Assembly (NCBI GenBank): GCA_018394315.1
Contig: CP074575.1
Span: 1,148,615 to 1,212,614 of the forward strand
Length of the DNA: 64,000 nucleotides
Source of the DNA: Mycoplasmatota bacterium
Lineage (GTDB): Bacteria > Bacillota_I > Bacilli_A > MAG-NZ
Reading direction: 5' to 3'
A program made the position numbers and the translations under genes. The notes beneath the pieces are model-generated. The model saw only the letters and a list, made by a program, of their open reading frames with translations, ran no database searches and was not told the DNA's origin. Below are positions 15,381-21,787 of the stretch, piece after piece; the stretch's first letter is position 1; every line of letters starts with the position of its first letter.

Positions 15381-15420
15381 GCCATTAACTACTGAAGTAT
15401 AAGTAATTAATGGCATTTTT
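15381..15420. terminator. Terminator between the convergent lacI-like and tpl-like genes
   Basis: GCCATTAA...TTAATGGC followed by a T run. Confidence 0.6.
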
Positions 15421-15503: not shown

Positions 15504-16961
15504 TCAAAGTTTTGTTTGGAAATCCTCAATAAATTTTTCAACTAACCTATTTGTCCAACTAGAGACCGGCTCTAATTTACCGAAGAAAAATCTAAGAATT
15601 TCTGGTTCTTCGGTAAATTTTAAGCCTTCAATCAGTTCTCTGTTTTGATATAGCCATGTAATTCTATCTACGGCATATTTAACATGAGATAAACTAAATA
15701 CTCTACGAGGTAAAGCTAAGCGCACTAATTCTAAATTAGCCAAAGTGTCAGATCCATCTGTCTGTCTTTCTTCTGATAATGTACCACGTTCCATTCCGCG
15801 TATCCCACTTATTATATATATAGCAGCAGCTAGAGCTCCTGCTGGGTACTTTTCTTGTGGTATATGACTAACAAACTGAAGTGCATCTATATGACATCCT
15901 AAACCACCAGCGGGAGTAATAACAGGCACACCATTTTTCTTTAATTCATTAGTCATGAATTCTATAAATTGTGGACCTTGGCTAATGATATCTTCATCCA
16001 TAGTTTCTTCTAAACCTACAGTAATTGCTTCCATCTCTTTTACTGACATTCCACCATAAGTTATGAAACCTTCATATAGTGTTAGAAGTACCTTCATTTT
16101 TGAATATATTTCCTCATTGTTTAGACATATTCCTCCACCTCTAGCTGAACCTAGTTTTCTACCGGAGAAATAGATAATGTCACAACAATCAGCTATCTCT
16201 TTAGTTATTTCTTTGATACTCATACTTCTACATGCATCTTCTCTAGTCTTTATAAAATGTAAGTTGTCACTTAATAAGCTTGCATCCATCACTAGTATTA
16301 TGCTGTTGTCCTTACAAACCTTACTAACTTCTTTAATATTTTCTAATGAAAAAGGTTGTCCTCCTATTAGATTAGTACCTGCTTCCATCCTAACAAATGG
16401 GATTTTGTCCCTTCCAAGTTTATTAATTAAAGACTTTAATTTTTTTATATCCATATTTCCTTTAAATAGGAAAGAACTTTTAGTCTCTAAACCCTCTTCT
16501 ATAAGTAATTCTTCTATAGAACCGCCATTCAACATTATGTGTGCTTTAGATGTTGTGAAATGATAGTTCATTGGTACAACTGAACCTTCTTCTACAAGAA
16601 CTTTAGAGATTATATTTTCACATGCTCTACCTTGATGAGTAGGTAGAATAAAATTCATACCAAATAATTCTTTTAATTTAGCCTCAAAACGATAGAACGT
16701 CTCACTACCAGCGTAACTATCGTCAGCTATAAACATTGCTGCTTGCTGTTTATCACTCATCGCATTGACACCACTATCCGTAAGCATATCCATAAATACA
16801 TCTCTATTTCTAAGTAAGAATGTATTGAAACCAGCCTCAACCATGGCGTTTTCTCTTTCTTCAATTGGTTTTAGAGATATTTTTTGCACTATTCTTGCTT
16901 TATGCATCTCTAAAGGGATTTTTTCTCCACTTAATAATTTAATCATACTTTTTGCCTCCAT
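15504..16961 (-). CDS. Beta-eliminating lyase (tryptophanase/tyrosine phenol-lyase family) with TPL-type specificity residues
   Basis: NTFLL, DMLTDSG, DSYAGS, HQGR, NYHFTT, PLP-lysine motif SGRKLG, GMERG, RLALPRRV, LRFF. Confidence 0.88.
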   Translation of the reverse strand: MEAKSMIKLLSGEKIPLEMHKARIVQKISLKPIEERENAMVEAGFNTFLLRNRDVFMDMLTDSGVNAMSDKQQAAMFIADDSYAGSETFYRFEAKLKELFGMNFILPTHQGRACENIISKVLVEEGSVVPMNYHFTTSKAHIMLNGGSIEELLIEEGLETKSSFLFKGNMDIKKLKSLINKLGRDKIPFVRMEAGTNLIGGQPFSLENIKEVSKVCKDNSIILVMDASLLSDNLHFIKTREDACRSMSIKEITKEIADCCDIIYFSGRKLGSARGGGICLNNEEIYSKMKVLLTLYEGFITYGGMSVKEMEAITVGLEETMDEDIISQGPQFIEFMTNELKKNGVPVITPAGGLGCHIDALQFVSHIPQEKYPAGALAAAIYIISGIRGMERGTLSEERQTDGSDTLANLELVRLALPRRVFSLSHVKYAVDRITWLYQNRELIEGLKFTEEPEILRFFFGKLEPVSSWTNRLVEKFIEDFQTKL

Positions 16962-16980
16962 TTTCCTCGATTTAATATAT

Positions 16981-17250
16981 AAAAAACCGTCCTTTGTTTG
17001 TTTAACAAAGGACGGATTATAACCGTGTTACCACCTGAATTTATCAATGTCTCGCAACATTGACCTTAATAAGTATCTATCAATACCTTACACGTTAACG
17101 AGTGTAAATCCGGTTTACTCCTACTATGATTTTAATCAATTCAAAGCACTGCTCATGAGATGTATTCATAAAAGTTTTCTTTGAACCTCTCATCAACCGG
17201 TATCTTTCTGTAAAGAGTAAACTTTAACTACTAATTCTCAGTCATTGCAT
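16981..17250 (-). ncRNA. T-box riboswitch, Tyr specifier (UAC)
   Basis: Minus strand: GA motif, AGUA, AG box (CAGAAAG), GNUG box (GAUGAGA), specifier loop GAA-UAC-A (plus 17162-17164), T-box AAUUCAGGUGGUAACACG, terminator CCGUCCUUUGUU/AACAAAGGACGG plus U6. Confidence 0.9.
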
Positions 17251-17265
17251 TTATATATTGATATT

Positions 17266-17294
17266 ATCTTACGCGAATATTGTCGAATTGTCAA
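17266..17294 (-). promoter_or_regulatory. SigA-type promoter of the T-box leader
   Basis: Minus strand TTGACA-17-TAAGAT. Confidence 0.75.
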
Positions 17295-18111: not shown

Positions 18112-18160
18112 GATGTTGACAATGATTTTTTATATGATATATTTAAAACAACTTAATAGA

Positions 18161-18265
18161 ACTTTCAGGGCAGGGTGAAATTCCCGACCGGCGGTTATAG
18201 TCCGCGAGCTTAGGCTGATTAGGTGAAACTCCTAAACCGACAGTAAAGTCTGGATGGAAGAAAGT
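18161..18265 (+). ncRNA. FMN riboswitch (RFN element)
   Basis: CAGGGCAGGGTGAAATTCCCGACCGGCGG...CCGACAGTAAAGTCTGGATGGAAGAAAG upstream of the rib operon; TTGACA at 18116. Confidence 0.97.
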
Positions 18266-18301
18266 GGGAAATAGATAGTATTTTTACTATATATTATTTT
18301 T

Positions 18302-18336
18302 GCTCTGAAGTAAACTTTTTGCTTCAGAGTTTTTTG
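18302..18336 (+). terminator. Riboswitch-controlled terminator
   Basis: GCTCTGAAGTAA...TTGCTTCAGAGT plus a T run, just before the ribD SD. Confidence 0.8.
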
Positions 18337-18351
18337 TTGGAGGGTATTCAA

Positions 18352-19449
18352 GTGGATACAAAATATATGAAAAGAGCACTAGAACTGTCAAGAAAGGGTA
18401 GCGGATTTACTAATCCTAATCCACTTGTAGGTGCAGTAATAGTAAAAAACGATAAAATAATTGGTGAAGGTTATCATGAGCGTTATGGTCAGGCTCACGC
18501 AGAGATAAATGCTCTTAAAAGCGCCAAAAATTCGGTTGAAGGTGCAACTATGTATGTGACGTTAGAACCATGTTCACATTACGGAAAAACACCTCCCTGC
18601 GCGGATGCTATTATAGCTAATGGTATAAAGAGAGTGATTGTTGGTATACTTGATCCAAATCCTTTGGTCTCTGGAAATGGAGTTAGGAAATTACAAGAAG
18701 CAGGTATCGAAGTTCAAGTTGGAATATTAGAAAGTGAAATAAGAAATGTAAATGAAATATTCTTAAAATATATCACAACGAAGAAACCGTTTTGTATTAT
18801 GAAAACGGCAATGACTTTAGATGGGAAAATTGCTACAGTAACGGGTGATTCAAAATGGATTACTTGTACTGAATCTAGAGAATATGTACATATGATTCGC
18901 CAAAGAGTTGCTAGTATTATGGTTGGAATTGGAACAGTTGAGGTTGATAATCCACTTCTTACAACTAGACTTAATCAAGAAACTTCTAGTCTAACCAGAA
19001 TCATTGTTGATAGTAAACTGAGAATTAATTTAGAATCGCATGTATTAAATGTTAGCAACAGAGCCAAAACTATTATTGCGACTACTAATAATGCTGATAC
19101 TTACAAAATGAATATATTAAAAAGAAGAGGTATTGAAGTAATAGTTTGCCCGACTAAAAAGAATAGAGTTGACTTAAATTATCTAGTAAATAAGTTGGGA
19201 GAGATTGGGATAGATAGTATTTTATTAGAAGGTGGTGCAACTCTAAATTATAGTAGTTTAAATGAAGGTATTGTAGATAAGGTTATGGTCTTTATAGGGC
19301 CTAAAATATTTGGTGGAGAAACTGCTAAGACCTCAGTTGGTGGAGCTGGTAAAAATTATGTAGATGAGAGTATTCTATTAGGTGATATGAATCTTAAAAA
19401 AATAGGCTCAGATATTTTAATTGAAGCCTATATCAAAGGAAGTGAATAG
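18352..19449 (+). CDS. ribD: Bifunctional riboflavin deaminase/reductase
   Basis: PNPLVG, HAE, LEPCSHYGKTPPC, TLDGKIA and LEGG; GTG start after SD GGAGG. Confidence 0.96.
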   Translation: MDTKYMKRALELSRKGSGFTNPNPLVGAVIVKNDKIIGEGYHERYGQAHAEINALKSAKNSVEGATMYVTLEPCSHYGKTPPCADAIIANGIKRVIVGILDPNPLVSGNGVRKLQEAGIEVQVGILESEIRNVNEIFLKYITTKKPFCIMKTAMTLDGKIATVTGDSKWITCTESREYVHMIRQRVASIMVGIGTVEVDNPLLTTRLNQETSSLTRIIVDSKLRINLESHVLNVSNRAKTIIATTNNADTYKMNILKRRGIEVIVCPTKKNRVDLNYLVNKLGEIGIDSILLEGGATLNYSSLNEGIVDKVMVFIGPKIFGGETAKTSVGGAGKNYVDESILLGDMNLKKIGSDILIEAYIKGSE

Positions 19450-20091
19450 ATGTTTACAGGGTTAATTGAAGAATTAGGAGTAGTAAAGGATGTAGTATTT
19501 GGAAGTTCATCAGCCAAGATTTCTATTTACGGGAACAAAGTATTAGATGGACTTAATATTGGAGACAGTATAAGTACTAATGGAGTATGTTTAACTGTAG
19601 TTGAATATAATAATAATTCTTTTGCTGTTGATGTCATGCCTGAGACTATGGAAAAAAGCAATCTTGATGAACTTAGAATTGGAGACATGGTTAATTTAGA
19701 AAGGGCGCTTAGATTAGGTGATAGACTTGGAGGACATATAGTATCAGGACACGTGGATGGTAAGGGGATTATAGAGAGTTTTATAGAAGATGATAATGCA
19801 ATTTGGGTTACCATTAAAGCAACTGGAGAAGTACTTAAATATATAATCAAAAAGGGCTCGATTGCTATTGATGGAGCTAGTCTTACTGTTGCGTATGTAG
19901 ATGAACATTCTTTTAAAGTATCAATTATTCCATTAACACAAGAAGAAACTACCCTTACAAAAAAGAATGTAGGAGATTATGTTAACTTAGAGTGTGATAT
20001 GGTAGGTAAGTATATTGAAAAGATTATAGGATTTGAGAAAAAAGAAAAACCGATTGATTTTAATTTTTTAAAAGAAAACGGATTTACATAG
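19450..20091 (+). CDS. ribE: Riboflavin synthase (alpha chain)
   Basis: MFTGLIE, NGVCLTV and [11 protein letters not shown] motifs. Confidence 0.96.
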
Positions 20092-20102
20092 GAGGAGAAA
20101 TA

Positions 20103-21314
20103 ATGAAATTTAACACCATTGAAGAAGCAATTGAAGATATTAAGAATGGAAAGATGATAGTTGTTATTGATGACGAAGATCGCGAAAACGAAGGAGATTT
20201 ATTGATGGCTGCAGAAAAAGCAACTCCAGAATCAATAAACTTTATGGCTAAGTATGGTCGTGGTTTAATCTGTACTCCAATGACAAGAAAGAGACTTGAC
20301 TTACTAGGTATATTTCCGATGTTAAAAGAGAATACTGATCCAAAAGAAACGGCTTTTACAGTGTCAGTTGATTCTAAAGATTGTAAAACAGGAATTTCTG
20401 CGTATGAAAGAGCGAGTACTATACAAAAATTGATTGATGACAATTCAAACGAAGAAGATTTTACAAAGCCAGGTCATATCTTTCCTTTAGTAGCAAAGGA
20501 TGGAGGGGTTTTAAAACGAGCTGGTCACACAGAAGCAGGAGTAGATTTAGCCAAACTTGCAGGATTAAAACCTGCAGCTGTAATATGTGAAATTATGAAT
20601 GATGATGGAACTATGGCTAGAGTTCCTGATCTACAAGAGTATGTGAAAGTTCATAACTTAAAAATAATCACTATCGAATCTTTAATTAAATATAGAAGAA
20701 TAAGAGAGAAACTGATTTCAAGAGAAAGCGAGGCAATGTTACCTACAAAAAATGGTGAGTTTAAGATGGTAGGTTACATCAATAAATTAAACGATGAACA
20801 CCATGTAGCTCTGGTAAAAGGAGATATCAGTGAAAATGATGAAGTGCTTGTAAGAGTACATTCTGAGTGTTTAACTGGAGATGCATTTGCTTCATTAAGA
20901 TGTGATTGTGGAGATCAATTAAATGAGGCTCTAAGAAGAATTAATGATGCTGGTAAAGGAGTACTCTTATACATGAGACAAGAGGGACGAGGAATCGGTT
21001 TGATTAATAAGATTAAAGCTTATGCACTACAAGATACTGGAATGGATACAGCTGAAGCCAATGTAGCACTAGGTTTTCCAGAGGATATGAGAGAATACGG
21101 GATTGGTGCACAGATTCTTTATGATTTAGGAGTTAGGAAGATTAAGCTTATGACTAATAACCCTTTGAAGTTATCAGGAATAAATGGTTATGGTTTAGAA
21201 ATTGTTGATAGAGTACATATTCAAACAAACCACCATGAGCGTAGTGATTTCTACTTAAAAACAAAGAAAAATAAAATGGGTCATCTATTAAATTTCAAGG
21301 AGGAAGAGAAATGA
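20103..21314 (+). CDS. ribBA: Bifunctional DHBP synthase / GTP cyclohydrolase II
   Basis: DREDENEGD-type motif, [22 protein letters not shown] and QEGRGIGL. Confidence 0.96.
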
Positions 21315-21787
21315 AAATAATCGAAGGAAATCTAATTTCTAATAATAAGAAATTTGGAATTATTGTAGGAAGATTTAATGAATTTATCGGAGGAAAATTG
21401 TTATCTGGAGCATTGGATGGATTAAAGAGGCACGGTGTAGAAGAAGATAATATTGAGATTGTTTGGGTACCAGGTGCATTTGAAATGCCTCTTGTAGCTA
21501 AAAAGATGGTGGAAGCATCAAAGTATAGTAGCGTAATCTGCTTGGGTGCAGTAATAAAGGGTTCGACACCACATTTTGATTATGTGTCAAATGAAGTAAC
21601 TAAAGGTATAGCTAGTGTTTCTTTAGAATCGGGTATTCCTGTAGTATTCGGAGTGTTAACTACAAACACTATCGAACAAGCTATTGAGAGAGCAGGAACT
21701 AAAGCTGGTAATAAGGGTTATGATGCAGCAATTACTGCTATAGAGATGTCGAATTTATTAGAAAATATTGATTTGAATAAGTATTAG
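21311..21787 (+). CDS. ribH: 6,7-dimethyl-8-ribityllumazine synthase
   Basis: RFN, VPGAFE, G.TPHFDYV and [10 protein letters not shown] motifs. Confidence 0.96.

Follow-up and report, generated by a model that had tools for sequence, protein, structure and literature searches.

Why would a gene of the tyrosine phenol-lyase (TPL)/tryptophanase (TnaA) family stand behind a sensor of tyrosine starvation? The question is raised by a 64,000-nucleotide stretch of a Mycoplasmatota bacterium genome (assembly GCA_018394315.1, contig CP074575.1, positions 1,148,615 to 1,212,614 of the forward strand), hereafter the window, in which a gene for a pyridoxal phosphate (PLP) enzyme of 485 amino acids (window positions 15504 to 16961, minus strand; PLP lysine K269) follows a T-box leader with a tyrosine specifier codon. 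A first-pass annotation of the same DNA had proposed that the enzyme runs anabolically and turns phenol into tyrosine. From the comparisons described here, we consider it probable that the enzyme supplies tyrosine from phenol.

The T-box leader

The leader (17005 to 17254, minus strand) matched the Rfam T-box model RF00230, read from 17254 to 17005, over all 219 of the 219 model positions, scoring 102.2 bits where the gathering cutoff is 93 (E value, 2e-21); stem I, stem II, stem IIA/B, stem III and the antiterminator are all present. The specifier codon UAC (Tyr) lies at 17162 to 17164 (minus strand) within a GAA-UAC-A loop, and the antiterminator bulge, UGGUAAC, lies at 17027 to 17033 (minus strand). 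An intrinsic terminator, with 12 pairs, -17.5 kcal/mol and a U-run, lies at 16987 to 17015 (minus strand). It shares bases with the antiterminator (-3.9 kcal/mol) along the 3' arm of the latter, and the two are mutually exclusive, which is the mark of a transcriptional-type leader. T-boxes allow read-through upon binding uncharged tRNA, and an overlap of this kind is the usual layout of a leader that is on during starvation; the gene should be read only with uncharged tRNA-Tyr bound. The first-pass annotation had described a complete transcription-type T-box with a UAC specifier, and both points held.

The specifier assignment is supported by the Rfam alignment, by UAC in relatives and by the genome itself, which carries 17 T-boxes. 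The same register gave the expected codon, read by eye, at the other leaders: UAC before tyrS, UGG before trpS and trpB, UUC before pheS, CCU before proB, AAC before asnS and asnB, AUG before metS, AUC before ileS, GCU before alaS and UCA before serS. Apart from trpB, these gene names are presumed from the translations. A wrong specifier codon is ruled out by the alignment and these in-genome controls. The single tRNA-Tyr gene of this genome has the anticodon GUA and an ACCA end that can pair with the UGGU bulge, as had been claimed; since most T-boxes in this genome carry UGGU, the match says little about specificity. By codon, tRNA end and terminator, the element is classed from its sequence as a tyrosine-specific, transcriptional-type T-box. 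The proposed promoter fared less well. There is a TTGACA-17-TAAGAT site with 10 of 12 matches at 17266 to 17294 (minus strand), and its position directly upstream of the leader is the argument for it, as such sites were no more frequent in the region than chance allows (14 against 18.6 in shuffled sequence).

In its full stem I, UAC specifier, UGGN bulge and overlapping terminator, the leader resembles the tyrS-type T-boxes of RF00230, of which we take Bacillus subtilis tyrS to be an example, and the tyrS leader of this genome has the UAC specifier too. It differs in its target, which is a gene of the beta-eliminating lyase family and not a synthetase, a de novo pathway or a transporter. Three other T-boxes of this genome, at contig positions 1492471, 1670975 and 1924328 (L004, L005 and L017), are followed by a first open reading frame (ORF) that is no obvious synthetase or biosynthesis gene; we take these ORFs to encode a 107-amino-acid membrane protein, a GNAT-like protein and a MazG-like protein.

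The enzyme and its branch of the family

The protein passed the PRK13238 "tryptophanase" subfamily model (601 against 285), and its score, fold-type I PLP fold and PLP lysine place it in the TPL/tryptophanase family (PRK13238, PF01212). It fell short of the TPL equivalog TIGR02618 (446.8 bits against a cutoff of 720.7, with two relatives at 453 and 438) and of both TnaA equivalogs, TIGR02617 (352 against 826) and NF053783 (399 against 750). Its relatives are mostly named "tryptophanase" in databases, a label that stems from the broad PRK13238 model. The nearest solved structures are TPLs, at about 40% identity. An alignment-based structure model, used in place of a single-sequence fold with a predicted local distance difference test (pLDDT) score of 37, reached a pLDDT of 92, with template modeling scores of about 0.9 (up to 0.91) to TPL and TnaA and root mean square deviations of 1.3 to 2.1 Å for the best structural matches. 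A tree of 113 proteins placed 90 on a separate branch (length 1.2; Shimodaira-Hasegawa-like approximate likelihood ratio test [SH-aLRT] support, 100) apart from 6 TPL and 17 TnaA sequences; the tree was built with a quick method, has SH-aLRT support only, carries a long-branch warning and leaves out L105, which comes from the same genome as L028. The studied genome has, in addition, a separate TnaA-type gene without a T-box, whose product is 35% identical to the studied protein.

Five residues, Thr124, Met288, Met379, Arg381 and Phe448, are given as separating TPL from TnaA in the excerpted text of PMC5805759. At four of them the clade agrees with TPL, with the equivalents of Thr124, Met379, Arg381 and Phe448 in 90, 90, 90 and 87 of 90 rows, respectively, the 3 remaining rows being truncated at the Phe448 position; at the fifth position, 288, all 90 rows have a TnaA-type Phe. 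The TnaA determinants Asp137, Val394, Ile396 and His463, four of the five indole-pocket residues, are absent from every clade row, and what the clade shares with TnaA is the family, the fold and the Phe at TPL position 288. The motifs FTT, MERG, LRFF and SGRKLG are present as they had been described, the PLP lysine is kept in 90 of 90 rows, and the equivalents of TPL residues Thr49, Tyr71, Asn185, Asp214, Lys257, Arg404 and Phe449 are also kept. The pocket is, by these residues, of a predicted phenol type.

Other positions set the clade apart from TPL proper (TIGR02618; Citrobacter freundii 2EZ1 and Erwinia herbicola 1C7G), with which it shares the fold and most pocket residues. Arg217Leu, Lys256Arg, His343Leu and Phe346His are invariant in the 90 clade rows, Asn262 is replaced by Arg or Lys in all 90, Glu69 by Asp in 87, and Asp258 by Leu, Phe or Val; Arg217, Lys256, Asn262 and His343 are canonical in 23 of 23 TPL and TnaA rows. 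We take Arg217 to bind the substrate carboxylate and Glu69, Lys256 and Asn262 to form the monovalent-cation site, and because these residues are changed, the active site appears remodeled. The earlier description of a TPL-type protein is therefore borne out for the pocket, at four of five residues, and not for equivalog membership or for Arg217 and His343; the enzyme is best described from its sequence as TPL-like, yet outside both TPL and TnaA proper.

Tyrosine sensors and tyrosine synthesis genes across the clade

The first-pass annotation had called for a survey of homologues for tyrosine T-boxes, and the pairing did recur. Among genome loci, taken as the best 80 of 299 relatives, a T-box stem I lay upstream in 27, of which 24 scored above the Rfam cutoff, and the specifier was UAC in all 27 (24 by pattern and 3 by eye). 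An even draw of the phylum, with 399 genomes of at least 90% completeness scored (G106 and G152 not scored), gave 8 further carriers, 5 of them with a T-box and 4 of those 5 above the cutoff. Of 80 metagenome loci, 74 were parsed and 68 had enough upstream DNA, another 6 being too short; 10 of these 68 had a T-box, with UAC in every one by eye. The T-box copies are spread over the tree of the clade and intact in many lineages, and every leader read senses Tyr, never Trp. The same search within 700 nucleotides of canonical genes found a T-box at 0 of 23 (6 TPL and 17 TnaA); L127 and L131, which were not parsed, are left out. On the conservation and this control, chance capture of the T-box was rejected.

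Fifty-three of the 80 genome relatives have no T-box, and among these we found a second type of sensor. In a strict leader test, defined as a short upstream ORF with at least three consecutive Tyr codons, 6 of 50 T-box-less genome loci scored, compared with 2 of 272 neighbor genes (P = 2e-4; L060, L083 and L101 were dropped for short upstream DNA), as did 9 of 58 metagenome loci. A looser test for Tyr-rich leaders did not separate the two groups (8 of 53 against 13 of 172). The leaders hold runs of 3 to 6 Tyr codons, and a terminator follows the leader in L042, L053 to L055, L144, L147, L177, L180 and L196; when metagenome leaders were folded, 5 of 6 showed a hairpin and U-run by eye. The Johnsonella locus combines a terminator with six Tyr codons and a strand that could base-pair with those codons. 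Three Patescibacteria loci, L053, L054 and L055, have tandem Tyr leaders, each with its own terminator, about 100 to 250 nucleotides upstream of the gene in L053 and L055 and 100 to 370 nucleotides upstream in L054, an arrangement that reads as a double attenuator in bacteria of the candidate phyla radiation; tyrA and aroC were not found in these three genomes. L097 and L100 pass the strict test too, but no clear terminator follows and the matches may be fortuitous. In having a short ORF with a run of codons for one amino acid and then a terminator, these leaders resemble attenuators that we take to be of the trpL, pheL and hisL type; they differ in preceding a lyase-family gene, and there is none in the window itself. 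Because both T-boxes and Tyr-codon leaders occur, the clade appears to be under one signal through two unrelated mechanisms.

Some T-box-less copies show other upstream features. The Firmicutes copies L065, L067, L079, L097 and L100 have direct TGGTAG repeats near the promoter, and part of the repeat is also found upstream in L070 and L080; judged from the sequence, the repeats may bind a transcription factor and reflect a different type of control. In Rhodobacter sp. CZR27 (L111:2305-4452), the clade gene lacks a T-box and is divergent from a gene for an Rrf2-family regulator.

Sensing of tyrosine shortage tended to go with the absence of tyrA. Of the 27 T-box genomes, 19 gave no tyrA, compared with 7 of the 53 others; a Tyr leader is present in 4 of these 7. 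Among the carriers from the even draw (96 to 99% complete), tyrA was absent in 5 of 5 with a T-box and present in 3 of 3 without. A second tyrA model, PF20463, found 0 of 31 among tyrA-negative genomes, which does not support the idea that tyrA was overlooked through divergence; this model missed a Bacteroides control, so the tyrA call for the Bacteroidetes genome G030 is unsure. The one-contig genome G226 carries the gene and lacks tyrA and aroC, while its congeners G159 and G216 have both tyrA and aroC and no match to the gene. The link between sensor and tyrA loss is suggestive only.

The source of the ring was considered next to these counts. aroC is also missing in half of 24 tyrA-less T-box genomes, and UbiD occurs in 7 of 37 genomes, including 5 of 28 tyrA-less sensor genomes, and was not found in the studied genome. 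An internal route from chorismate through 4-hydroxybenzoate to phenol is not general, UbiD being rare, and since aroC is often missing as well, the ring must mostly come from outside.

Gene neighborhoods gave few partners. The gene usually stands alone, no neighbor is conserved in more than 5 of 80 loci, and no recurring partner, such as a transporter or a hydrolase, was seen next to it in these 80. At one locus (L098:781-8696), a Tyr (UAC) T-box heads a row whose first gene is the studied one and whose next three are aroF, tyrA and aroA; a 60-nucleotide gap there holds nothing that resembles a terminator, and a divergent aroF-pheA unit with a Phe (UUC) T-box stands back-to-back with this row. 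The studied genome has a lone trpB behind a Trp (UGG) T-box at contig positions 1213044 to 1214464, about 430 nucleotides past the end of the window; no trpA, trpC or trpE-type gene was found in this genome. Sequence and setting suggest that the lone trpB serves indole salvage through a TrpB1-type protein that lacks its alpha subunit, in a genome with a TnaA-type gene as well. Salvage of indole by lone TrpB offers a parallel for the salvage of free arenes, and the layout here would mirror phenol salvage by the studied enzyme. In L056 and L057, too, a lone trpB with a Trp T-box stands close to the studied gene, and trpA was not found in those genomes.

Probable supply of tyrosine from phenol and the alternatives

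How would such an enzyme supply tyrosine? When tyrosine is short, uncharged tRNA-Tyr would base-pair with the leader at two places, through its anticodon at the UAC specifier and through its ACCA end at the bulge of the antiterminator; the terminator would be blocked and the gene would be transcribed. The enzyme would then join environmental phenol to a PLP-bound aminoacrylate, formed from pyruvate and ammonia by reverse elimination or from serine or cysteine by beta-replacement, to give L-tyrosine; the formation of tyrosine, phenol as the ring donor and the three-carbon donor are the parts that we infer. The same job, coupling a free arene to aminoacrylate to make an aromatic amino acid, is that of the engineered TyrS described in the excerpts of PMC13174591, which was evolved in the laboratory on the TrpB fold, whereas the clade protein is natural and has the TPL fold. 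The anabolic proposal of the first-pass annotation gains comparative support, as regards control by tyrosine starvation and tyrosine supply, from the conserved UAC T-box, the Tyr-codon attenuators, the enrichment in tyrA-less genomes, the L098 operon and the lone trpB; the direction of the reaction stays a matter of inference.

Several observations weigh against tyrosine supply from phenol, and the first is in the studied genome itself. The first-pass annotation had proposed checking homologues for missing tyrA and shikimate genes, and in the studied genome they are not missing. One operon (contig CP074575.1:928543-935589), which has no T-box, carries tyrA, aroA, aroC and a chorismate mutase gene together with likely aroB, aroE/K, aroQ and aroF. 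This rules out a tyrosine auxotroph. Prephenate dehydratase was not found in this genome, which is 93.6% complete; the organism makes tyrosine de novo, but perhaps not phenylalanine or tryptophan. A close relative, G006, also has tyrA and aroC, and tyrA is present in 8 of 27 T-box genomes. Among T-box-less genome copies, 46 of 53 are in tyrA-positive genomes, most without a detected Tyr sensor, and copies that lack one may be used otherwise. Related genomes are not independent, and the gene tree gave 5 independent pairs for sensor against tyrA loss, on average 3.1 for the link and 0.0 against, which is the same direction but not significant (sign test P = 0.25; L060, L083 and L101 left out). 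Many of the genomes are incomplete metagenome-assembled genomes. The gene occurs in only 5 of 297 tyrA-less genomes of the even draw and is therefore no general replacement for tyrA, and aro or tyrA neighbors were seen in only 1 of 168 loci (L098), plus one aroC, with trpB in 5 of 168. The equivalents of Arg217 and His343 are lost throughout the clade, and given this loss the chemistry may differ from that of TPL. Finally, in the excerpts of PMC13174591, TPL thermodynamics favor breakdown and synthesis is usually run at 1 to 10 mM substrate, with in-cell synthesis tried at 500 μM 2-methoxyphenol; the excerpted text of PMC10170061 gives TPL Km values of 12 mM for pyruvate, 20 mM for NH3 and 1.1 mM for phenol. 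The same text describes TPL as reversible, with a reverse kcat 1.5 times the forward one, and as performing beta-replacement. Replacement driven by serine or cysteine, or high ammonia, would presumably ease the energy problem.

Because this genome has tyrA and the shikimate operon, a phenol route here would be a saving and not a need: an inexpensive bypass alongside the shikimate pathway, just as the lone trpB with its Trp T-box would salvage indole. In tyrA-less carriers, it would possibly be the only tyrosine route besides uptake.

The alternative that survives best, though we regard it as unlikely, keeps tyrosine supply and gives up free phenol. The enzyme could racemize D-Tyr, exchange the aryl group of ring- or O-substituted tyrosines, or remove analogues that compete for TyrRS when tyrosine is scarce. 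Such recovery of derivatives fits every regulatory result and avoids the thermodynamic problem, and a site altered by Arg217Leu, Lys256Arg, Asn262Arg/Lys, His343Leu, Phe346His and Met288Phe allows another reaction. However, the residues that hold the unsubstituted phenol ring in TPL are kept together with Tyr71, the lack of a recurring transporter, hydrolase or partner gene does not favor it, and the lone trpB points to salvage of free arenes.

A catabolic TPL whose T-box was acquired by chance or is vestigial, or one that breaks down tyrosine for reasons unrelated to supply, is less probable again. Its case is made by the TPLs as nearest solved structures, by the direction that thermodynamics favor and by the 53 relatives without a T-box. 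It is hard to reconcile with UAC T-boxes that are intact across many lineages, with a second, unrelated sensor of tyrosine starvation elsewhere in the clade, and with the self-defeating result of destroying tyrosine under tyrosine starvation in tyrA-less genomes. Canonical tpl, moreover, is induced by tyrosine, 32-fold through TyrR according to the excerpted text of PMC10170061, and no T-box precedes any of the 23 canonical genes, whereas the clade gene is predicted to be on at tyrosine shortage and lacks a recurring adjacent transporter. A tryptophanase, or a general Cys/Ser beta-lyase with an indirect link to tyrosine, is the least probable of all, as the PRK13238 match, the Phe at position 288 and the database names are set against the two missed TnaA equivalogs, the absent TnaA determinants, the separate TnaA-type gene in this genome and leaders that sense Tyr and never Trp.

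Taken further, the preferred reading of tyrosine supply from phenol would make the whole clade a natural tyrosine synthase, a proposal on which we are evenly divided. The TPL fold would have been remodeled, with Arg217 lost, the cation site changed and the His moved by three residues, to favor coupling of phenol to serine- or pyruvate-derived aminoacrylate, and anaerobes from Firmicutes to Patescibacteria and Bacteroidota would recycle the phenol of tyrosine fermenters under two independently evolved sensors of tyrosine starvation, as a tyrosine counterpart of indole salvage by TrpB that is labeled "tryptophanase." If true, this would be a one-step route to tyrosine independent of the shikimate pathway, closing a loop between phenol and tyrosine in digesters, sediments and guts. 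Calls of tyrosine auxotrophy would change for some small-genome bacteria, including some Patescibacteria, and a "tryptophanase" label able to inflate counts of indole producers would be corrected. The enzyme would also be a natural starting point for biocatalysis of tyrosine analogues, where synthases had to be engineered from TrpB.

The T-box and the PLP enzyme are each members of families already known. Searches of paper listings and abstracts turned up neither the third clade nor its regulation by a shortage of tyrosine, and gave no publication that connects a T-box with this clade; an earlier listing, as in the RegPrecise or TBDB tables, is possible. A term search of the available TBDB text (PMC7778990) gave no mention of the pairing, and the clade motifs do not appear in the available supplement of a tryptophanase-mining paper (PMC12980246), a supplement that gives accessions and possibly not the sequences themselves.

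At the locus itself, the gene was confirmed as a single beta-eliminating lyase unit. A divergent HAD gene lies on one side and a convergent LacI-family gene on the other, and a terminator-like hairpin at 15381 to 15414 (minus strand) faces the latter, from which the gene is judged to be monocistronic, as first described. Translation probably begins at the second ATG (16946), which is preceded by GGAGG; the two closest database proteins have the 480 amino acids that this start would give. Farther along the window, an ordinary flavin mononucleotide riboswitch precedes ribD-ribE-ribBA-ribH-like genes at 18157 to 21787 (plus strand).

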